DNA from: a virus
Taxonomy: Duplodnaviria; Caudoviricetes
Virus record (IMG/VR): IMGVR_UViG_3300028596_000001
Length of the DNA: 64,000 nt
Reading direction: 5' to 3' (one strand)
The translations under genes were made by a program, and so were the position numbers. Shown piece by piece: positions 20,477 through 60,400 of the stretch. How positions within the stretch are numbered: the stretch's first letter is position 1; the number at the start of each line of letters is the position of its first letter. The notes beneath the pieces were generated by a model that ran no database searches, was not told the origin of the DNA, and saw only the letters and a list, made by a program, of their open reading frames with translations.

Positions 20477-20565
20477 TGGAGGGGAGCTGGTCGGACTCGA
20501 ACCGACGACCTATGGGTGAGGGACTAGTATCACCCACCGCGCTAACCAACTGCGCTACAACTCCC
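20477..20565 (-). ncRNA. tRNA-like RNA with an enlarged anticodon arm (no assignable anticodon)
   Basis: GGGAGTT/AGCTCCC acceptor, D arm AGCGCAGTTGGTTAGCGC, T arm GTCGG-TTCGAGT-CCGAC and encoded CCA, but the anticodon arm is GTGGGTGA-TACTAGTCCC-TCACCCAT (26 nt instead of 17). Confidence 0.8.
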
Positions 20566-20570
20566 ACATT

Positions 20571-20646
20571 TGGCTCCGTAACCAGGACTCGAACCTGGGA
20601 CCCACGCATTAACAGTGCGTTGCTCTACCGACTGAGCTATCACGGA
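20571..20646 (-). tRNA. trnN: tRNA-Asn (GTT)
   Basis: Canonical 76-nt cloverleaf TCCGTGA...TTACGGA-G-CCA; anticodon loop CT-GTT-AA. Confidence 0.97.
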
Positions 20647-20655
20647 AGAAATCTT

Positions 20656-20780
20656 GACGGTCCAATTCGGACTTTTACCGCACTTACACAAGAGCTTGCG
20701 GCTCAAGGGAGCCCGACCGTCCGGGCGCCGAGTGCTTTCTTTACCTACCAGGGTTCCTTGATCAATGGTCCTTTGTAAGT
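20656..20780 (-). ncRNA. Pseudoknotted structured RNA between tRNA-Trp and tRNA-Asn
   Basis: ACTTACA/TGTAAGT, nested TCAAGGGA(G)CCC/GGGTTCCTTGA, and a crossing GACGGTC/GACCGTC helix. Confidence 0.5.
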
Positions 20781-20785
20781 TAATG

Positions 20786-20861
20786 TGGCAGTCCAGTCAG
20801 GAGTCGAACCTGAAACCTACGGCTTTGGAGGCCGTTGCTCTGCCAGTTGAGCTACTGAACC
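20786..20861 (-). tRNA. trnW: tRNA-Trp (CCA)
   Basis: Canonical cloverleaf GGTTCAG...CTGGACT-G-CCA; anticodon arm ACGGC-CTCCAAA-GCCGT. Confidence 0.97.
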
Positions 20862-20942
20862 AAATAGGTCCTTCCCGGGAGGGAAGGAAGGGTGCAACCG
20901 GGTTTCCTGCTTCAGTGTATATTTCTTTACAAACCTTTTAGC

Positions 20943-21027
20943 TGGGGGAGGTGGATTTCGGACCCTACCACCATTTCACACGGTACTAGAAAATTCCCGT
21001 GTGGAGTTTAAGCTTAACTTACCCCCC
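20943..21027 (-). ncRNA. Degenerate cloverleaf (tRNA-like) RNA ending in CCA
   Basis: GGGGGGT/ACCTCCC 7-bp acceptor followed by CCA, a GTT/AAC mini D arm, CACACGG/CCGTGTG stem with a 13-nt loop, and a T-loop-like GGG-TCCGAAA-TCC. Confidence 0.55.
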
Positions 21028-21034
21028 GTTTACA

Positions 21035-21135
21035 CTGACGCGATTGCGGCGAGCCGACCTGACCGTCGGCTAATACCAGGATAAAGATCCCGGTTCGTTG
21101 CGGCTGTAGGAAGCCGTTGAGAAACCTACAGTCGG
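21035..21135 (-). ncRNA. Multi-hairpin structured module
   Basis: AGCCGAC/GTCGGCT, GGAT/ATCC and GGCTGTAGG/CCTACAGTC stems filling the space between two tRNA-like RNAs. Confidence 0.4.
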
Positions 21136-21142
21136 AACAAGA

Positions 21143-21282
21143 CAGAGAGTGCACGATTCGAACGTGCGGACCCACATCCCGTAAGTTGCAGATAATGGGT
21201 ACATCCGGTTTCTACGCCCCAACCACGCCGTGGCTAGGTTAAGCGTACCACCAGACTCCTTAAACCACTCGGACAACTCTCT
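21143..21282 (-). ncRNA. tRNA-Ser-type scaffold with a long hairpin inserted in the anticodon loop and an extended variable arm (140 nt)
   Basis: AGAGAGT/ACTCTCT acceptor plus G discriminator, Ser-type D arm TCCGAGTGGTTTAAGGA, T arm GCACG-TTCGAAT-CGTGC, anticodon stem TCTGG/CCGGA enclosing 42 nt; no encoded CCA. Confidence 0.8.
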
Positions 21283-21288
21283 AGAATA

Positions 21289-21365
21289 TGGCGCGACCAG
21301 AGGGACTCGAACCCTCGACCATCCGCGTGACAGGCGGATATTCTAACCGGCTGAACTATGGCCGC
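21289..21365 (-). tRNA. trnD: tRNA-Asp (GTC)
   Basis: Canonical 77-nt cloverleaf GCGGCCA...TGGTCGC-G-CCA; anticodon loop CT-GTC-AC. Confidence 0.97.
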
Positions 21366-38457: not shown

Positions 38458-38901
38458 TTAGCGGAATTTGAACGGCCGGTGGTCGCTGTTGTCATACGCG
38501 TAAATCGTTCCATTGATACTGACCAGCGCATCGTTCTTGCGATTCACAATCTCGTCGAAGATAAGTAAGTCCTTCGAATGAGAACCCTTCTTGTTGATAT
38601 TACCCGAGGCAGAACTAATGAAGGAACACATTTCCTTCAGCGTAAAGTACCCGGGGAATCTACACTCCCACCCACTCACCCCTTGTGTCAACGTGGGAGA
38701 GGTAACGGTGTCGTCCCGTATCAGTTCGATGCGTCCTGCATACACACCTAGTTTGTACTTGAAGTACATCCCTGTTGGCGTGCGAACTACAGAATACTCG
38801 AGCCCCTTGTGTTCTAGGTAGCGGGCGAAAGCCACTAGCGCTACAGCCACCCACAAAAAGAACGTTAGGAAATTAAGCCCAAGATTAACCATTTCAGCCA
38901 T
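38458..38901 (-). CDS. Hypothetical membrane-anchored protein, 147 aa
   Basis: N-terminal hydrophobic segment LGLNFLTFFLWVAVALVAFA. Confidence 0.6.
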   Translation of the reverse strand: MAEMVNLGLNFLTFFLWVAVALVAFARYLEHKGLEYSVVRTPTGMYFKYKLGVYAGRIELIRDDTVTSPTLTQGVSGWECRFPGYFTLKEMCSFISSASGNINKKGSHSKDLLIFDEIVNRKNDALVSINGTIYAYDNSDHRPFKFR

Positions 38902-45107: not shown

Positions 45108-45314
45108 TTACCCTCCAGTAAGAACATGGAACAAACTAACGATGAACAACCAACAAACAGTTATTAAGATGATGTATGCAACAGTACATGTATCAGCTCT
45201 GCGTTTGAGGCTACTGAGAGGCCCCTCAAAGACCCAAGCGTTGAATTTACGATAATAGATACCAGCTAGGGTGAGTAACACCGTGGCGATGGCTAAGGAG
45301 AGCTCCCAGACCAT
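45108..45314 (-). CDS. Small two-TM membrane protein, 68 aa
   Basis: Two hydrophobic segments (WELSLAIATVLLTLAGIYY; VAYIILITVCWLFIVSLF); AAGGAAG RBS. Confidence 0.6.
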   Translation of the reverse strand: MVWELSLAIATVLLTLAGIYYRKFNAWVFEGPLSSLKRRADTCTVAYIILITVCWLFIVSLFHVLTGG

Positions 45315-48730: not shown

Positions 48731-50259
48731 TTGTCCACGATCAGGTTGATCACGGAAACAGTCAGGCGCTGGCGCTGGTCAGAGACATTGTCTTCGCCAG
48801 CTTGAGTAATGAAGGTATCTTCCAGCAGGTCCGCAGCCAAACCACAGCCGAGGGCGCGCAGGAATACTGGAACGATGTGCGACGACATTACCACGTCACA
48901 AACACCAGGACGTTCGTCACCTTCAGACACTGGAACATCGCTACCGAAGTCGTAACCACTGGCCATCAGCTCAGCGTAGCAACGACGCAGTTCTTGGCCA
49001 AAGGTATTGCTCACCCAGGTACCCAGCAGGTCTTGCGAACCAGCACGGATTTCATCGAGACGAGACATGATGTTCTCGTTACCGATAATGAAATCGTGGA
49101 TGGTCTTCAGACCGCCGGCAATGAAACGCACTTCAGCGTGAGCCGACAGTTTTTCATTGACGTAGGCGAAGTACTCGTTAGCCTTGGCCTGGAAGTGCTC
49201 AGGGTTAGTGAACATTTCGGTAGCGGTACGGCGATTGCCAGTCAGACGCTCCCAGTAGTAGCCCATCACCACTTCAGCCATGGAGCAGTCTTTCGACGTG
49301 ATAGCCTCCAGTACTTCGTCGGTGTAATAGACCATGGTGTCAGCTTCCAGGAAGCGAACATCCTTCTGGGTATCGCCACGACCGTCTACCAGACGCACCG
49401 GGCCGTTGTCGACCACCACCATCTTGGCATCACGGTAGTTAGCAACAACGACCTTGAGGTTGATCAGGTGAACGGTCATGCCGTTCCACAGAGTGGTAAC
49501 GAACTGACGGTAGGCTTCCAGGGAACCGGACTTCAGCCAAGGCACTGGGTTGTCCGAACTGTACATCTTGGTCAGGATGATGTAAGCCTTGAGGAGCTTC
49601 TCGGAATCCAGCTGCTTGATGCGGCTGAAGTCGTAGTTGCCTTCACGGCTACGTGCGAACCAGTGGTCCAGGGCTTCTTTGTCGGTCAGACAGAAAGCAG
49701 CGTTGGCAGGCGAGGAATCACGCTCACGCATGATCTCAACCACGTCGGCATGGTTGGAGTTAACGAACTCCAGGACCTGCTCGTTGGTCGGGAACTCGAA
49801 CTGCAGACCTTCGAGACTTTCCAGACCAACGTTGGTGTAGGTGAACAGCGACTTGTCCTTGACTTCCTTCGGATAGATCGGGGAGTCGAAGAACGGATCA
49901 TCCAGCCAGATGAACTGGTGCTTGAAGTTAACGCTGGCGACGCTGCGCAACATCTGACGGCTGTAGCAGACTTCGGCTTCTTTACCGATGGCCATGGCCA
50001 GAGGCTTACCGTAAGCGCTGATGTTCTCCATCGCACCACGGATGATCTCAGCCAGACGACTGGAAGCAGCTTCCATTACCGCAGTGTGCTCGGTCTCGTC
50101 GCCGCTGGTCGCTTCAACGATTTCCTTGCGGAACTGTTCGGTGTAAGGATGCAGCCCATGACTAACGCCGTTCAGACCTTCGATGATCGTGGTAGGACGC
50201 AGGACTGGATTGGCAACTGCGATCAGTTCGCCCAGACCGATACTCGATTGACGAATCAT
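48718..50259 (-). CDS. Conserved virion/head protein (phiKZ gp177-like), 513 aa
   Basis: Long ORF with a GGGGAGG RBS and strong codon bias; synteny. Confidence 0.65.
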   Translation of the reverse strand: MIRQSSIGLGELIAVANPVLRPTTIIEGLNGVSHGLHPYTEQFRKEIVEATSGDETEHTAVMEAASSRLAEIIRGAMENISAYGKPLAMAIGKEAEVCYSRQMLRSVASVNFKHQFIWLDDPFFDSPIYPKEVKDKSLFTYTNVGLESLEGLQFEFPTNEQVLEFVNSNHADVVEIMRERDSSPANAAFCLTDKEALDHWFARSREGNYDFSRIKQLDSEKLLKAYIILTKMYSSDNPVPWLKSGSLEAYRQFVTTLWNGMTVHLINLKVVVANYRDAKMVVVDNGPVRLVDGRGDTQKDVRFLEADTMVYYTDEVLEAITSKDCSMAEVVMGYYWERLTGNRRTATEMFTNPEHFQAKANEYFAYVNEKLSAHAEVRFIAGGLKTIHDFIIGNENIMSRLDEIRAGSQDLLGTWVSNTFGQELRRCYAELMASGYDFGSDVPVSEGDERPGVCDVVMSSHIVPVFLRALGCGLAADLLEDTFITQAGEDNVSDQRQRLTVSVINLIVDKCLE

Positions 50260-50420
50260 TAGTTCGCCTCCCCGTTCTTGGCCTTACGCACGATGGCCTT
50301 GCTGATCTTTTCGTCCTGAATGGATTCATCCAGAGGCGCGATGTAAACCAGTCCCAGTTTGGAAATGGTGTGTTTGACCAACTCGGTAACGTTGGCCACG
50401 GTGATGATATCACCGATCAT
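50259..50420 (-). CDS. Small protein below the ORF-track cut-off, 53 aa (MIGDIITVANVTELVKHTISKLGLVYIAPLDESIQDEKISKAIVRKAKNGEAN)
   Basis: Hand translation; genome-typical codons (ATC, ACC, AAG, GCC); TAA overlaps the next ATG; fills the gap exactly. Confidence 0.65.
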   Translation of the reverse strand: MIGDIITVANVTELVKHTISKLGLVYIAPLDESIQDEKISKAIVRKAKNGEAN

Positions 50421-50453
50421 TTTTTCTTTAGACACGACGTTGTACCTCTGGGA

Positions 50454-51377: not shown

Positions 51378-54300
51378 TTAATTCCCCTGTAGACCTTTAC
51401 CGCCAATTTGGAAAACTCGGATACGACTTCGTTGCTAGCAGCTTCATCACGAAGACTGTTAACCATCCGGTTGAGCATACCCTTGAAACTGGTCTTCACG
51501 TCTACCCGTTTCCCATCCAGAGTGTAGATAGGTTTAGGCATAACGTAACCAGTGGTACACTTCATCTGATTACCGAGTACGTACTTGTCCGCCATGGTAC
51601 TAACGTCAAGTGTTTCAACGTAAATGGTGATCAGGACCAACCCTGGTGGAATGACTGGCTTGGCTACGTTCAGGTTGGTGTTGACTGCCCCAGTAACTGG
51701 CTCCTTACCTTCGGTCTCCATGAAACGCTTACGCTTCTTGTCATTCTCCTTAACCAGCTTCTTGACCGTCTCGGACATCTCTTCTTGCGGAGAGTTGTAC
51801 TTAACGTCAATGTGAATGATCTTACCGTGGTTCCTGGAACGAATCTGACGAATACCAAGGCGGTTGATTTCATTCGAAAAATCGGCAGAGTCCGGGCCGT
51901 CACTTAGGACGTCGCCGTCTTCAATTTCGCATAAAATCGCGTCATAATCGATCTCATCACCTACTTTTGCCCGCATCCCGATTGCCTGAGTGGCCAACAT
52001 GGTGAACCGCACAGGGTTTAGGAACGGAGTAACGGATTCCTCTACGATATCACGAGACACCGCAATGGAGTCCTCAAAGGTGTCCTGGTCTTCAACCATG
52101 GCAATACGCACCATACGACCAGTTTTGAGAACGGCTTGACCAGGGTTGAAAGGATCTCGAGCAAACCACTCGTTATCCCAACCAATGACGTCGCCCTTAC
52201 GGAACTTATCCCCTACTTTCAAATCAGTTACACGAGTATGACGGTGGTATTCACCACTGGCTTCCCCGATAACCAGACCCAGAGGATAACGGTCAACAGA
52301 ACCATCCTTGTAGGTAACTACCAACTGATCGTCTTCTACAGCAGTAACCTTACCTTCTTCTTTGGCTACTTTGCTGTACAGCTCGGAAGTACGATGTGCC
52401 ATCACGGAGTCATAACCAGTACGAGTAATACCCCAGGTATAGTTCTTCGCACTAACTGCTTGCGACCACTGAGTGGAAATGAACACCTGACGTTTAGCAT
52501 CGTCCTTGGTTACCGACACGGACAGGTTACCAGTCACCGACATCAAGCTGGTGAAACTAGGCTTGCCTTTAAGGTCCATGTTGCCGCGGTAGTCATCGAT
52601 CAACGGGTCACTGGTGGTGTAAGTAACGAAACCTACTTTACCACTGTCCTTGTTCGCCTCACTAATACGACCACGGTAGGTAGGTAGTTGTTCACGAGCA
52701 CGTTGTACAACCGTGATCTCGCTACGACCACCAGTACCACCAAAGGTGAGTTCTTCTTGATCCTTCGTCTGGTGAACAGGGTTTACCTCTTCTACCAAGT
52801 TAACCGAAGTATCAGTCAGAATCCGCATGGTGACTGCGTCAGGGTTGATCTCGAACTTGTGCTTACGGTCTTTACCTTTGTTGTGGTAACGACGGTTAGC
52901 TTCGCACATCTCGCTGTAAATGTGACCAGCAAAACGTTCGTAACCAACAATGCGCTGTTCTTCCAGCTCCACTTCATGACGGGTCTGATCAGTTTCCAGC
53001 AACTGCACAGCATCAAGCAGCAGGTAGTGGAACGAATCAGCGTAACCGAGCTTCTGCAACTGCTCTTTAGTAATAGGGTCAATGAACAAGTCGAAGAGGT
53101 TCTTCATTTCGCGGAAATGACGAGTCTTGACTTTAGGATCAGCCATCAGCGGACCCCAAACACCGTTGTTGTTCAAATCGCTCTTACTAAAGTTGCTGAT
53201 GTTCCCCAGACCAACCAAACCACCGAAGATCATGGCAGCAAACTTTTCACGACGATTGAAGATCAGGTATTCATCGTTAAAGGCAATCGCGTATTCGTCT
53301 TCAGACAACTTAGGACGAGTACCGTTAGGCACGGAGCGCGTGGTAGCCTTGGTGACTGCCAGCAACGTGTCGATACCGAAGTAGTAGCAGAGCACCACAC
53401 CAATAGGGAACAGGAAGCCCCCGATGTTGATAGATGCAAACTCGATAGGAGCCTTAGCCAGCGAGATCCCCATCAAGCCTTCGAGTGTACCCAGTTCCAC
53501 ACCGTCGATATAGATGTTGCCGTAACTGTCCGTGGTGAGTGGCTTGCCGTCTTTAACACCGATCAGGAAGTTATCCTTCTTCAAATACTTCTTGAAGTCG
53601 GGGTATTCAGCCAGCAGGTTGTGGACACGGAAATCGAAGGTGTATTCCCCGGCCTTGATCCACTGGAAGCGAGTAGCCAACGCACTGTAGACTCGTGGGC
53701 TCGGCAAGCTCTGATCAAACTTGTTACCACGGTTGAAAGTCAGGTTACCAGCGTCACCCTGCGCCATGATCTGCTTGCTCATCCAGACACCCAGATCTTG
53801 CGCTACCTTCTTGCTTCGAGTAACCATCAAACGGTTGGGGTAGTAACTACTCAAAGCTACCTTAGCCCGGTCGATCTTGCGGATAGGCAATTCACGACGC
53901 TGCAACTGCATGTGAGTCTTCACACCGTCAACAGTGAAGGTACTATCCTTCTGGACCCTGGGGACACGTATGACGTGCGTGGACTGCTCACCGTCCACTG
54001 GGTGGAGTTGGATACTGAAAACGTCGTACTCACCCTCTACGCTCGTTACAACGTCATGTTTGAAGTTGTTGAGTGCGATACCGGCGTTCTGGATACCAAC
54101 GAACATGCTGACGATGTCCTTATGCAGGAACTTGTCAACGTAACCTTGTTTGAGGATGTTAGCTTTCGACACCAACATACTCTCATCGAGAATAGTGGTG
54201 AAGTTAGCTTCGATCTTCGCATCGCTCTTCAGAGACTTCAGGTCCTCTTGGGATACCTTCATGAACTCTTCGAGGGTTTGTCCGTTAGGCATTTCGATGT

Positions 54301-55765
54301 GCTTGTACTGGGTGCCTTTACGCATGAAGAACTGTTGTTCCGCCACACTCAGGCTACCGTTACGCGCACGTTCTTCCAGAGCCAAAGCCACGCCGGCTTC
54401 AGGGGTAGCAAACGGGTCTTTCTTGACGGAGACTTCAGCAGTAGCAACTTCCTGCTCCAGCAGTTTGTCGTCTACAGCGGAGTTCCACTCCTGATCATCT
54501 TGAACAGGATTTCCGTCTCCCGTACTTCCCTCGACGTCCACAGATGGTGCCACACTTGCTCGATTGTCTTGGAGGACATCCAAGAGGCTATCGCCAGTAC
54601 TAGCACTAACCACAGGGCCATCTTCTTGACGAGCTTTTTCTTGTCGATCGTGTGGACCTTCTCGTCCTTGCTCTTCCTCAGTTCGATCCGCTCCTTCAAC
54701 CAAAGCGGTACCCGACGCTTCTCCATTTGGGTCATCCTTCTCTTGTTCGCTAATCCCTCCCCGGGAGAGATTCATCAAGGCTAAGTAAAAACGCTTCGCA
54801 GCGTTTAGTCGTTTTGAGTGACCAGTTCTGTGACTGGTTTTAGCGGGAGCTTTACCCTTAGCCGCTTCGGCTGCGAGTTTCTCCAGGTACTTCTTGTCAT
54901 TCTCATTGTCCAGCCACTCTTTAATGGTGGCCATGTGGATGATCAAACAACGGCTGTCGAATACAAAGATGATGTGCAGCGCATTCAGGGCTTCTGGGGT
55001 AAGCTTGTTAAACAGGCTGTACTCGTAGTCCCCGAAGACCCAGGCCATGAAGTCGATCAACCAGTAACTACCCTCGGCCTTGGTCAACCGTACGGTCTGG
55101 TTGCTAGGAATCGGCTTACCAGTCTCGTGGTTGAACTTGTCGATGTAGTGATCGTAGTCGATCAACAGTTCGTTAAAGCCTGGGAAGTTAATCGGCAGAT
55201 CCACACGCATGAACTGCTGACGTGGGGAAGTACCAACCCGATGGGCTTCTTCGTTGATACCGGCAACCAATGCGTTGAAATGGTTGTAGTACTTTTCGAA
55301 GTTAACAAAGATACTAGCCCGCTGAGCAAACATCTTGTCCAGCAAGCCGTAACTCTTAACGATCAAGTTACGTTCTTTGTTGTAGACCGTCTTGATGTCC
55401 TTGGTCCAGTTATAGTTGTAGTGGGTAGCCCGGTAGCCCTGGATGGCCTTACGGATCTCCAGAGGCAGGTTACGACCGCTACCCAACACAGGCTCGTAGC
55501 GACTAACGAAGTCGAGGAAGACATCGCCCTCGAAGTTGCTAATAAAAGCTTCACTACGACTCGGACCGATCTCCATCACGTTCTGTGGGAAGTAATGGAA
55601 CAGCGACATCCGTGGGAGACTGATCTCACTGATCGGCAAGAAATGAGGGCTGACCAATTCCTGCCGCTTACGCATTACAAACCAACGGAAGAACTGGGTG
55701 TACAGAGCAGCCATTGCCTCCGTACCAGTTACCGCGTCCAACGGGGAATTAGCACCCAAATTCAT
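51374..55765 (-). CDS. Virion RNA polymerase beta subunit (phiKZ gp178-like), 1463 aa
   Basis: beta-like motifs GGTGGRS, SEANKDSGKVG, FEDSIAVS and DKYVLGNQMK; size; immediately downstream of virion beta'. Confidence 0.9.
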   Translation of the reverse strand: MNLGANSPLDAVTGTEAMAALYTQFFRWFVMRKRQELVSPHFLPISEISLPRMSLFHYFPQNVMEIGPSRSEAFISNFEGDVFLDFVSRYEPVLGSGRNLPLEIRKAIQGYRATHYNYNWTKDIKTVYNKERNLIVKSYGLLDKMFAQRASIFVNFEKYYNHFNALVAGINEEAHRVGTSPRQQFMRVDLPINFPGFNELLIDYDHYIDKFNHETGKPIPSNQTVRLTKAEGSYWLIDFMAWVFGDYEYSLFNKLTPEALNALHIIFVFDSRCLIIHMATIKEWLDNENDKKYLEKLAAEAAKGKAPAKTSHRTGHSKRLNAAKRFYLALMNLSRGGISEQEKDDPNGEASGTALVEGADRTEEEQGREGPHDRQEKARQEDGPVVSASTGDSLLDVLQDNRASVAPSVDVEGSTGDGNPVQDDQEWNSAVDDKLLEQEVATAEVSVKKDPFATPEAGVALALEERARNGSLSVAEQQFFMRKGTQYKHIEMPNGQTLEEFMKVSQEDLKSLKSDAKIEANFTTILDESMLVSKANILKQGYVDKFLHKDIVSMFVGIQNAGIALNNFKHDVVTSVEGEYDVFSIQLHPVDGEQSTHVIRVPRVQKDSTFTVDGVKTHMQLQRRELPIRKIDRAKVALSSYYPNRLMVTRSKKVAQDLGVWMSKQIMAQGDAGNLTFNRGNKFDQSLPSPRVYSALATRFQWIKAGEYTFDFRVHNLLAEYPDFKKYLKKDNFLIGVKDGKPLTTDSYGNIYIDGVELGTLEGLMGISLAKAPIEFASINIGGFLFPIGVVLCYYFGIDTLLAVTKATTRSVPNGTRPKLSEDEYAIAFNDEYLIFNRREKFAAMIFGGLVGLGNISNFSKSDLNNNGVWGPLMADPKVKTRHFREMKNLFDLFIDPITKEQLQKLGYADSFHYLLLDAVQLLETDQTRHEVELEEQRIVGYERFAGHIYSEMCEANRRYHNKGKDRKHKFEINPDAVTMRILTDTSVNLVEEVNPVHQTKDQEELTFGGTGGRSEITVVQRAREQLPTYRGRISEANKDSGKVGFVTYTTSDPLIDDYRGNMDLKGKPSFTSLMSVTGNLSVSVTKDDAKRQVFISTQWSQAVSAKNYTWGITRTGYDSVMAHRTSELYSKVAKEEGKVTAVEDDQLVVTYKDGSVDRYPLGLVIGEASGEYHRHTRVTDLKVGDKFRKGDVIGWDNEWFARDPFNPGQAVLKTGRMVRIAMVEDQDTFEDSIAVSRDIVEESVTPFLNPVRFTMLATQAIGMRAKVGDEIDYDAILCEIEDGDVLSDGPDSADFSNEINRLGIRQIRSRNHGKIIHIDVKYNSPQEEMSETVKKLVKENDKKRKRFMETEGKEPVTGAVNTNLNVAKPVIPPGLVLITIYVETLDVSTMADKYVLGNQMKCTTGYVMPKPIYTLDGKRVDVKTSFKGMLNRMVNSLRDEAASNEVVSEFSKLAVKVYRGIK
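54472..54726 (-). CDS. Candidate overprinted single-TM protein (84 aa) inside the virion RNAP beta gene
   Basis: AAGGA Shine-Dalgarno 8 nt before ATG 54726; basic N-terminus plus hydrophobic MALWLVLVLAIASWM; the host frame here is a low-complexity linker with A/T-ending and rare CGA/GGA codons. Confidence 0.5.
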   Translation of the reverse strand: MEKRRVPLWLKERIELRKSKDEKVHTIDKKKLVKKMALWLVLVLAIASWMSSKTIEQVWHHLWTSREVRETEILFKMIRSGTPL

Positions 55766-57408: not shown

Positions 57409-60400
57409 ATGTCGGAATATAACGATTTTGAAAGTTATGACAATGACTGGGATGCCGATCCGTTCGAAGGTGACATGGACTTCGACATGGACTTCGACAA
57501 CCCAGGTGGTAATAAAGGGTTCCTTCGTAGTGTTGTAAGCGGTTTCTTGGACGGCGTCGTTGAACGTACCGTCGGTAGCACTGACGCAAAGATCAACACT
57601 TTGCAGCGTGTACTCCCACCAAGCTGGAACCCAACCTTCCGTAATCTGCGAGAGCTTCACCAGCGTGGCCGTGAAGCAATCGAGGAACTCAAAAATAATA
57701 GCTTCACCGCAGTTCAGGATTTACAGTACCTGGCTGCTCGTGCTGCCAAGGCAGCTGGTGACAAGCTTCCTAATAAAATCTCCGAAGGACTCAACGAGTT
57801 CAGTCGTCATGACTTTTCCAGCTGGGAAAAGCAGGAATACGAGCGTGACGACACGGTCAAACTCGAAGAAACTAGCGACGACGAAATAAAGGCTCTCCTT
57901 GCTCAAGGCGAAGCCGAGTCAATGCTATCTCGCGAAACCTTCAAGTCGGTGGGTAAACAAACCATCGGCATGATGACGGAGATCGGCGGCCGCAGTATCG
58001 CTGGCATGCACTCCATTGTGCAGACCAACCAACGGACTAACCAACTGCTGGAACACCTGCTGGATTATCAGCGTCGTGTCCAACAGCGTAACGACCAACT
58101 GCAAATCAATATTGCGGCGCGTCAATACCTGGCCAGCGGTAAGTTCTACAAGTTCGTTGAAGCCAGCAACCACCGGATGATTGCCGAGCTGAAACTGATC
58201 GCTCAATATAGCCAGCAGTCTGACTATGAGAAGACCACCACCAGCCAGGCACTGAAACGTAACTTGCGGGAAACTGTGTTCAACACAGCCAAGAGTCGTT
58301 TTGGTGGTATCGCCGATTATCTGACCGACCGTGTTGGTAAAGATGCTCGTGAAGATATTGCCGGTGACTTCTCCGATCTGACCAGTAACCTGCGTATGGT
58401 TGCTGAGATGACCGAAGGTATGCCTATTAACGTAGGTAGCATGCTGGGTAACGCAGCCGCTGGTATCTTCCTGACCAACCTGCCCAAGTTCATCGAATCG
58501 GGTAAGGGTCAAGAGTACCTCGTTAGGTTCACCAAGAAGTTCCCTAAACTGGCTAAGTGGGCGAAGGACGCTTACATCCGTATTGGTGACCTGGGCCATG
58601 TGGCGAACTACGCCACCGGTAACCTGGAAGAGATCGCTAACACTCTGGCACGTTTCCACCATAACGGTGTTGACACTTCGGGCGATGAAGATCAGACCTA
58701 CGAGGAATACGTCGACTCCCTGCCTAAGGATGCCAAGCCAGCGCCTAAAGCTATTTGGTACATTGCCAAGAAAGCCCGCAAGACCATCAACAATACCGCC
58801 AACGGTATGTTCGATGAGACGTGGAGCTCCTCCAATACCAAGTACAGTCTTAGCCAACGCACTCTGAAAGACAGTCACGAACAGGCCCTGTGGACCCGTC
58901 GTTCGGATCGTACTCTCAACGAAGAGATTCCTCGTTGGTTCAGTATGCTCCACCTGTCGCTGGAAAAGATCCGTACTGGCAATGACAAGCTGCAACCTCT
59001 GACGTATGACTACGTTAAGTCCAAGTTTGTTACTGAGCATCAGAAGGCCGCAATGGTCACTAATGCTGTCTTTGATCGCAACTCGTTTGCTTACCAGGCT
59101 ACCTCTGCACTTAACTTGGCTGGTAGTGTGGACGAAGGTGGTTTGCTGTCGAAAGAGGCTAAAGAAGCCTTTGCCATGCAGTTGGTAAAAGACAGCGACA
59201 GTAAGCACGGGTTTAACCCTTACAACTACTTCAACATGGAAGACCAAGGTCACTCCAAGGAAATTGCTGAAGCGGTTAAGAAAACTGTAATGTCGACCTT
59301 TGGGATCACCGATGCACATATCGATGAATTCCTTAACAGCGACACGGTTCGTCGTGGGGTCATGGCAACGTACATGCCTACCGAGAAGGGTCGTCGACTT
59401 CTCCCGGGCTTTGCTGACGCTAGCCGTAGCCTTGGCACGTTCATGCCGGATATCGCCGAAGGTATTGATATCCACAAGAGCGCTGGTTTCTACGAGGCAA
59501 TGAAACAAGCAGGGATCATCGCCCCAACCGAGTACGGTGAAGACGATATCTCTGAGAATAAGTTCTGGGACCTTTTGGGTAAGTTCATCAAGAACCCAGA
59601 GCTGAAGAACACGGTAGAAGTACCTAAGGACGCAAAGCTGGATCCGACCAGATCGTTTGGTGGGTTTGCTCCTAATCCAGCGTCTGCTTTGAATGCCCAG
59701 CCTAAACCACTGCCACCGTTTATCCTTGGTAGTAGTGCTGGTGCTGCTCCTAAGCCTAACGAGCCTGTCCCGGTCAAGATGGAAGGTCTGGAAGACCTTA
59801 TCAAGTCTCTCGATGGTCTGAAAGACATTGGTCGCAGCATGGACCTGTCCGGTGATGTATTCAAGAACCTGAGCAGCCTGGACTTCAAGCCTATTGGCAA
59901 CAGCCTGGATCTGCTGGTGAAGAATACCGGTGATCTCCTGCAATTGGCTCAGACTCGCAACGAGACCCTTACCAAGATCCAGGAAGGTTTGCCTACCCGT
60001 AAGCGTAAACAGACCCAGGAAGAAGAAAACGACATCAAGTCGGGTACCGCAAGGATCATCGACAAGATCAAAGAGTTCTCCTTCAAAGACTTCTACAACA
60101 AGGCAGTAGATACCGTACTGAGGAATGAACCCCTCATTCTCGGTGGCCTGTTGGGCGGTCTGGCTGGCTATGCATTGCACAACCCTAAGGCTGCTGCTCT
60201 GGTAGCTGGTGGTGCAATGGCGGCTGCTGCTTACGGTAAGTTGCGTTCTGCGGCTAAGGCGCGTACGCCTGAAGACTCGGAAGACCTTTATGAAGAAGGT
60301 TCGGATGAGCCTATCCTGGAAGCACGTCGCTTGCAGGATGGACAGTACTACGATCTGACCAAGAACAAGATCATCAAGAGCTGGAAGGAGATCTCTGGCA

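Follow-up and report, generated by a model that had tools for sequence, protein, structure and literature searches.

Analysis of a 64,000-nucleotide stretch of IMG/VR virus record IMGVR_UViG_3300028596_000001 (hereafter the window), part of a jumbo phage from a soil metagenome, revealed an open reading frame (ORF) that lies wholly within the gene for the virion RNA polymerase (vRNAP) beta subunit and is read in frame +1 of that gene. Selection on this frame and conservation of its features could be demonstrated by comparison with related phages, leading us to the conclusion that the embedded ORF is almost certainly a real overprinted protein-coding gene kept by purifying selection, with a small bitopic membrane protein as its predicted product. 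An overprinted membrane-protein gene within beta had been the core claim of the original prediction, which is now strongly supported by conservation, by an inverted pattern of codon-position divergence and by the ratio of non-synonymous to synonymous substitution rates (dN/dS).

The ORF occupies positions 54472..54735 on the minus strand, begins at beta nucleotide 1030 and spans beta residues ~344-431 (Table 1). Each of the features originally described for it is present in the sequence: an AAGGA Shine-Dalgarno (SD) motif 8 nt before ATG 54726, a Lys/Arg-rich N-terminus (12 Lys or Arg among the first 31 residues) and one transmembrane (TM) segment, all overlying an acidic and poorly conserved linker of beta that aligns poorly even between close relatives. 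The best 17-residue Kyte-Doolittle (KD) window of the embedded protein covers residues 32-48 with a mean of 1.99, and throughout the coding sequence of the TM segment the third positions of the beta frame are the second codon positions of the +1 frame. A further in-frame ATG at 54735 may possibly serve as a minor or dual start.

Divergence was analysed in pairwise codon alignments that were built on the beta protein and are hence unbiased towards the +1 frame. Between the relatives L002 and L004, divergence at beta positions 1/2/3 amounted to 0.256/0.093/0.047 in the overlap and 0.076/0.045/0.310 in the rest of the gene; the corresponding values were 0.395/0.279/0.209 and 0.191/0.124/0.463 for the window and L001, and 0.512/0.375/0.300 and 0.207/0.144/0.503 for OBP and pEt-SU. 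This inversion made the overlap the most extreme of ~135 sliding windows in 6/6 pairs, and when the same nucleotides are read in frame +1 they display the ordinary coding pattern, with divergence at position 3 > 1 > 2. By the Nei-Gojobori method, the beta frame had dN/dS values of 1.3-2.8 in the overlap and the +1 frame 0.08-0.49, compared with 0.09-0.12 for the rest of beta. In 65 of 73 inter-clade pairs, conservation of the +1 protein exceeded that of the beta linker, and beta third positions had the highest conservation (0.52 versus 0.42 and 0.40), both in an alignment built on the +1 protein and therefore favouring it. The constraint that a second frame had been expected to place on synonymous sites of beta was thus recovered, these sites being the most conserved positions in the overlap. 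Judged by these comparisons, the embedded gene rather than beta is the dominant constraint within the overlap.

Codon usage of beta departs from that of the flanking codons in the same region. Within the overlap, the fraction of beta codons ending in G or C is 0.35 (31/89) as compared with 0.60 among the remaining 1375 (Fisher p 4e-6), while CGA accounts for four of five Arg codons (4/77 in the rest of beta; p 2e-4) and GGA for six of ten Gly codons (3/91; p 1e-5); the counts made by hand for the original prediction proved exact on recount. ORF length was rejected as evidence, as frame +1 of beta contains open runs of 99, 95, 77 and 70 codons, which arise because a hydrophilic linker seldom creates +1 stops. 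Upon synonymous recoding of beta, the +1 frame remained open in 0.5-53% of trials, depending on the lineage, and the joint probability of an open frame with a TM segment was 0.00015-0.10 per lineage, giving a Fisher-combined p of 3e-10 over nine deep lineages. As the conserved TM core overlies beta residues without any conservation, only the +1 frame explains it.

Conservation in one clade and origin of the frame

The homologous linker was taken from 26 beta genes, comprising the 25 rows of a beta tree and KPN8, a Miami-like phage outside the tree. At the homologous place a +1 ORF of 75-112 codons was found in KPN8 and in 17/17 genes of one clade, which includes the window group, a second IMG/VR group, the EL-like MIZ-Pa99, RisingSun, Miami, VP4B, Aphrodite1, OBP, pEt-SU, Yubaba, AH04, CF8, PS1 and FishSpeaker. 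The ORF-positive lineages have in common an ATG, a basic N-terminus, a single TM segment and the recurring tail motif P.E.RE..L. An SD-like purine motif stands 5-10 nt before the homologous ATG in 12/13 lineages, a hydrophobic 17-residue window (KD 1.98-2.75) occurs at the homologous place in every ORF-positive lineage measured, and in most lineages the ORF stops just ahead of the conserved beta motif W(T/N)S.VDD. Frame +2 contained many stops in those relatives for which all three frames were translated. The original prediction had proposed to check whether SD and TM accompany an open frame in related phages, and this is so, ATG included, for each of the 17 beta genes sampled from the clade.

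No such +1 ORF was found in eight members of the sister clade (phiKZ gp178, SL2, Goslar, RSL2, RAY, Ea277G, Eowyn and Noxifer), whose linkers are equally acidic and carry no TM ORF. Goslar, which was counted as negative, holds a 57-codon ORF at the corresponding linker (frame +1 of beta codons 280-337), which opens with K/R-rich sequence and is weakly hydrophobic (KD 1.47) at its end; this could be a chance proto-ORF of the kind that forms the raw material of gene birth. In a maximum-likelihood tree of beta, the 17 positives make up one side of a long branch with support 100/100, so that a single gain or loss explains the distribution. Since beta is universal and the acidic linker is older than the ORF, the +1 frame is probably the younger, overprinted one. 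The ORF is unannotated in all 18 GenBank records examined, eleven of them ORF-positive (these included MIZ-Pa99, RisingSun, Miami, KPN8, VP4B, Aphrodite1, OBP, FishSpeaker, CF8, pEt-SU and AH04/Yubaba/PS1).

Three explanations without a separately translated gene in the +1 frame were considered. The open frame, the basic N-terminus and the SD-like motifs could all be by-products of an acidic linker poor in hydrophobic residues, and the hydrophobic stretch a result of local codon bias. Such a reading draws on the other open runs of 95, 77 and 70 codons in frame +1, on recodings that leave the frame open in up to 53% of trials, and on the fact that the acidic codons GAR/GAY give a K/R-rich, SD-like reading in this frame. 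Acidic beta codons do supply part of the N-terminal basic character and of the SD-like purine runs at no cost, and the beta motif ILDVF/LADLY forces part of the TM end ('LMFS/WLTFT'). By-products would, however, not account for beta third positions being the slowest, for a beta dN/dS > 1 next to a +1 dN/dS of 0.08-0.49, for a TM segment at the same place in 17/17 lineages over unconserved beta residues, for the combined recoding p of 3e-10, or for equally acidic linkers of the sister clade that lack a TM ORF; these comparisons largely refute the idea that there is no gene, and we consider it very improbable. Programmed +1 frameshifting, which would yield a truncated N-terminal beta fragment (~345 aa) with a membrane anchor, is similarly improbable. 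In several lineages a stretch of 11-18 codons ahead of the ATG is free of stops, and selection on the frame would fit such a product too. However, every lineage has a +1 stop a short distance before the ATG, the ATG with its SD at 5-10 nt is found at the same place in 12/13 lineages, and no shift site, for which no systematic search was made, stood out in the sequences read. A constraint from the opposite strand, where a 698-aa antisense ORF (52688..54784 (+)) covers the overlap, or from a structured or regulatory RNA or DNA element serving the downstream genes, appears more remote still. The codon-aligned antisense frame is indeed open in the window and has its wobble position in common with the +1 frame (dN/dS 0.28-0.68); however, it is interrupted by stops in L002/L004, L006, OBP and pEt-SU, its openness is gene-wide and a by-product of codon usage, and the lower divergence of beta position 3 than of position 2 fits the +1 sense reading only, while a non-coding element would not yield three-base periodicity together with conserved hydrophobicity.

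Very long ORFs antisense to real genes were also observed elsewhere in the window: besides the one at 52688-54784 (+), ORFs of 486 aa at 48802-50262 (+) and 751 aa at 57925-60180 (-) were found. The codon-aligned antisense frame of beta as a whole contains 7 stops in 1463 codons. These long antisense ORFs are a by-product of codon usage and provide no evidence of genes.

Predicted product and lysis context

The embedded gene is predicted to encode a bitopic membrane protein with a basic N-terminus, one TM segment and a helical tail of ~30 aa. An AlphaFold2 (AF2) model based on a 5-sequence alignment (mean predicted local distance difference test score, pLDDT, of 70) places helices at residues 8-22, 25-63, which holds the TM segment, and 66-80. 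The N-terminal side of the TM segment is net positive in 12/12 lineages, from which an N-in/C-out topology is predicted; as a small protein with a single TM domain (TMD) in this orientation, the product would have the topology by which class III holins are defined. Searches with the embedded protein gave no match in Pfam, PHROGs or a 5.8-billion-protein collection, the best score in the ESM Atlas (0.79) being uninformative. When 50,697 phage records were searched by tblastn with the 87-aa form, a short query subject to low-complexity filtering, only chance matches were returned (E at least 1). In our literature search we found no account of an embedded gene in jumbo-phage vRNAP beta, nor of a holin for the EL/OBP clade.

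Translation, topology and a role in lysis are what we infer from these features, and we propose the following course of events. Overprinting of the vRNAP beta linker would have given rise to the gene, in frame +1, in the ancestor shared by the EL / RisingSun / Miami / Vibrio / Aeromonas / OBP clade, and purifying selection has retained it since. Ribosomes would start at ATG 54726, served by the AAGGA motif, inside late beta mRNA and produce an 84-aa inner-membrane protein with a cytoplasmic Lys/Arg-rich N-terminus of ~35 aa, one TM helix and a periplasmic helical tail of ~30 aa. Accumulating in the membrane late in infection as a class-III-like holin or holin regulator, this protein would then give a signal-less endolysin, whose gene lies 3.1 kb downstream, access to the cell wall. 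A role in lysis is the one we judge likeliest, with about an even chance; its assignment as the holin proper is tentative, and that as a holin regulator or antiholin is weaker again.

The enzyme in question occupies the slot directly after beta, as the original prediction had stated. It combines two peptidoglycan (PG)-binding-type repeats with a transglycosylase/peptidase-like domain, according to PHROG matches. Its orthologue is the 292-aa lysin of the EL-like MIZ-Pa99 (200039-200917; 47% identity over 97%), and one relative is annotated as 'lysin'. On reading the N-terminus of the window enzyme, neither a signal nor a signal-arrest-release (SAR) sequence was seen. A signal-less endolysin calls for a holin, and one is therefore expected here. 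Throughout the ORF-positive clade an endolysin slot follows beta directly. EL188, of which the window enzyme is an orthologue, has been published as an endolysin (cited in PMC13282480), and OBP gp279 has been characterised as one (PMC3352856). The latter lies in the same slot in OBP (L012:6325-7311) and has only the PG-binding repeats in common with the window enzyme, the catalytic domain being different. In phiKZ the slot is empty and gp177.1 follows gp178; its lysis cassette consists of endolysin gp144, spanins gp141/141.1, class III holin gp142 and regulator gp143 (PMC12894885).

Candidates for further lysis proteins were found in MIZ-Pa99 (PV472050.1, L041), where an i-spanin and an o-spanin candidate overlap at 114661-115375 (-). 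The former, of 163 aa, has a TM at its N-terminus and is helical in its periplasmic part, but the record annotates only a 37-aa stub of it; the latter, in another frame, is a 149-aa lipoprotein with the lipobox LVGC and has a homologue in Miami (54167-54700 (-)). The pair stands 85 kb away, with no TM protein or holin beside it. The suggestion that the embedded protein might itself be spanin-like thus appears unlikely, given this separate pair, the absence of Cys or a lipobox and a periplasmic part of ~30 residues. Three conserved small TM proteins are left as holin candidates in MIZ-Pa99, namely the embedded ORF, a homologue of window 38458..38901 with an N-terminal TM, and the phrog_18283 protein (Table 1). 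No homologue of the EL-like spanin candidates or of phrog_18283 was found in the 64 kb of the window. In the window itself, the protein at 38458..38901 (-) is 147 aa long, has its TM at the N-terminus and matches phrog_35362 weakly (positional homologue MIZ-Pa99 1894-2298), and a second small membrane protein, of 68 aa, has two TMs and no PHROG match (45108..45314 (-)). The conserved 58-aa protein downstream of the endolysin was ruled out as a holin candidate, as it has no TM. The GenBank taxonomy of PV472050.1 (Straboviridae/Pantevenvirales) conflicts with its 209.8-kb EL-type genome and vRNAP genes.

Among known systems, the closest in architecture is phiKZ gp142, a class III(b) holin with a single TMD, N-in/C-out, and a periplasmic tail of ~30 aa (Manohar et al. 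2026, PMC12894885). It likewise is a jumbo-phage protein, comes from a phage of the same virus family, serves a soluble signal-less endolysin and has one TMD in the orientation predicted for the embedded protein, with a periplasmic tail of similar length. In contrast, gp142 shows no detectable sequence similarity to the embedded protein, is a free-standing gene in the cassette gp141-144 and has its own folded cytoplasmic domain of 80 aa that binds regulator gp143, whereas the embedded protein, with a putative function, has only ~35 basic N-terminal residues and is encoded within an RNA polymerase gene. Membership of the embedded protein in the gp142 family was rejected, as it has no PHROG match while gp142 matches phrog_14484 at 8e-57.

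Embedded or overlapped lysis genes are known from double-stranded DNA (dsDNA) phages, examples being lambda Rz1 in Rz (Rz/Rz1 is discussed in PMC12894885), T7 18.7 in 18.5 and P2 lysC in lysB. These resemble the embedded gene in that a small envelope protein is encoded wholly out of frame on the same strand of a longer gene, with its own SD and start. Genes of the Rz1 type, however, specify outer-membrane lipoproteins and lie within the gene of the i-spanin with which the product works, whereas the gene hosting the embedded ORF encodes a transcription enzyme unrelated to lysis, the embedded protein has no lipobox, and separate spanin candidates are present in MIZ-Pa99. Overprinting has also produced the single-gene lysis proteins phiX174 E (inside D) and MS2 L. 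These are alike in their de novo origin, their length of 75-91 aa, the combination of a basic segment with one hydrophobic helix and their location in the membrane, but belong to tiny single-stranded DNA or RNA phages under extreme genome compression and without endolysin, while the phage described here, with a genome of ~230 kb and an endolysin, is under no obvious compression pressure. Further small membrane proteins are known from T4, among them the class III holin gpt as well as rI, Imm and Sp. Of these, gpt is bitopic (N-in/C-out) with a short basic cytoplasmic N-terminus, and differs by a periplasmic domain of 160 aa; rI, Imm and Sp agree in size (80-100 aa). None of the four has a sequence relation to the embedded protein, and the exclusion function of Imm/Sp illustrates how such a protein could act outside lysis (gpt and rI are cited in PMC12894885).

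A real overprinted membrane protein with a non-lysis role, for example in superinfection exclusion or immunity, in membrane remodelling or in anchoring an infection structure, with its proximity to the endolysin being coincidental, is indeed a substantial possibility, albeit short of an even chance. The evidence for selection is neutral on function, and several observations weigh against a holin. Neither holins nor any other family in Pfam, PHROGs or the ESM Atlas matched the embedded protein, which has no homology to any lysis family. Its gene is on the same strand as the endolysin gene with only the rest of beta in between, yet lies 3.1 kb upstream and is not adjacent to it. RAY retains a transglycosylase downstream of beta and has no +1 ORF, so that the endolysin slot does not require the embedded ORF. 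The clade-specific TM and coiled-coil protein of phrog_18283, found in RisingSun, Miami and weakly in OBP, and not in SL2, Goslar or RAY, matches the presence and absence of the embedded ORF among the genomes searched; it could be the holin instead, and as a rival or partner candidate it stands on an equal footing. A gp142 homologue was undetected in six ORF-positive genomes (MIZ-Pa99, RisingSun, Miami, OBP, VP4B and CF8). This negative is a weak argument, as holins diverge fast and ORF-negative genomes are also without a match: gp142 was undetected in RAY, Goslar and RSL2 too and found only in the phiKZ-like SL2.

What speaks against a role outside lysis is that the small phage membrane proteins known to be embedded out of frame, such as lambda Rz1, phiX174 E and MS2 L, are mostly lysis proteins. 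In addition, spanin candidates and an endolysin were found in these phages while no holin was recognised, and the class III topology with a short periplasmic tail matches phiKZ gp142 (PMC12894885). A holin or antiholin partner of the endolysin, the function originally put forward, is plausible in view of its topology, its size and the signal-less endolysin downstream. What the prediction added on phiKZ-like phages, that their holins are poorly identified, is dated for phiKZ itself, owing to gp142 (PMC12894885); for the EL/OBP clade the papers searched yielded none, and a 2026 review of jumbo phages leaves holins and spanins unmentioned (PMC13282480).

The locus and its surroundings

On the minus strand, the gene order is gp180-like subunit, beta, endolysin, 58-aa protein and then a virion protein, with a gp181-like giant lysin encoded divergently on the plus strand of the same locus. 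The nearest relatives by beta identity are uncultured IMG/VR contigs (58-76%), followed in tblastn by Pseudomonas phage EL (53%, to its 'RNA polymerase beta subunit') and the Erwinia phages RisingSun and Joad (52%); beta has tblastn matches in 313 jumbo-phage records. The sequencing runs listed as carrying window DNA comprise nine soil metagenomes and one wastewater metagenome, with no RNA run among them. Contigs from 4 runs were short and identical to the window across the overlap, and offered no usable variants.

Table 1 Features of the embedded gene and its surroundings; positions refer to the window unless another genome is named.
Feature	Position	Strand	Remarks
Embedded +1-frame gene (probable), 84 aa	54472..54726	-	from the SD-served ATG 54726 to stop TAG 54474..54472
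Upstream in-frame ATG (possible start)	54733..54735	-	product MTQ-MEK..., 87 aa; poor SD spacing, AAGG directly abutting
Shine-Dalgarno AAGGA	54735..54739	-	8-nt spacer to ATG 54726
Predicted TM segment	54571..54621	-	residues ~36-52 of the embedded protein; by hydrophobicity
Acidic, poorly conserved beta linker	54446..54793	-	carries the overlap; beta residues ~325-440
vRNAP beta subunit (host gene), 1463 aa	51374..55765	-	homologue of phiKZ gp178 / EL beta
Second vRNAP subunit, phiKZ gp180-like, 540 aa	55762..57384	-	upstream of beta, same direction; synteny with RisingSun gp229 and phiKZ gp180
Endolysin, 307 aa	50454..51377	-	directly downstream of beta
Conserved 58-aa protein (phrog_17945)	50259..50435	-	downstream of the endolysin; positional equivalent of phiKZ gp177.1
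TM and coiled-coil protein (phrog_18283)	MIZ-Pa99 172188-172721 (L044:1188-1721); Miami 169427-169840; RisingSun 194078-194554		

The beta gene of the window is uninterrupted. In several relatives (MIZ-Pa99, FishSpeaker and Goslar loci) the vRNAP genes are interrupted, with beta split in two by an insert of ~400 nt and HNH endonuclease genes close by; a group I intron is annotated in Goslar. Elsewhere in the window, five tRNA genes (Ile-GAT, Asn-GTT, Trp-CCA, Gly-CCC and Asp-GTC) are clustered at 20481-21365 (-).

Implications for jumbo phages

Overprinted small membrane proteins such as Rz1, E and L are a known kind in phages, to which the embedded gene appears to add a well-supported new family, judged by its conservation. 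It would be a new conserved protein family for well-studied phages, including EL and OBP, the sources of EL188 and OBPgp279, and jumbo phages of Klebsiella, Vibrio, Aeromonas and Erwinia; gene callers drop fully embedded ORFs. The gene also shows cleanly, and in a form that can be dated, how overprinting gives rise to a gene de novo. At a genome size of 230 kb compression cannot drive the process, and within the overlap the older frame now behaves as the passenger, with a beta dN/dS > 1 as opposed to 0.08-0.49 for the new frame. From a practical perspective, anyone who recodes, deletes or codon-optimises the linker in vRNAP beta would alter a second gene without knowing it.

The literature we found describes a holin for phiKZ only among these phages, and the embedded ORF is a directly testable holin candidate for the EL/OBP clade with the assays published for phiKZ gp142. 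A gene that arose de novo in the +1 frame might, as we tentatively suggest, have become the holin, and hence the lysis clock, of a clade of nucleus-forming jumbo phages (EL, OBP, RisingSun, Miami and the Vibrio/Aeromonas groups). If so, no earlier example is known to us of a large dsDNA phage whose holin is encoded out of frame within a gene unrelated to lysis, and several phages of therapeutic interest would thereby gain their missing lysis gene.

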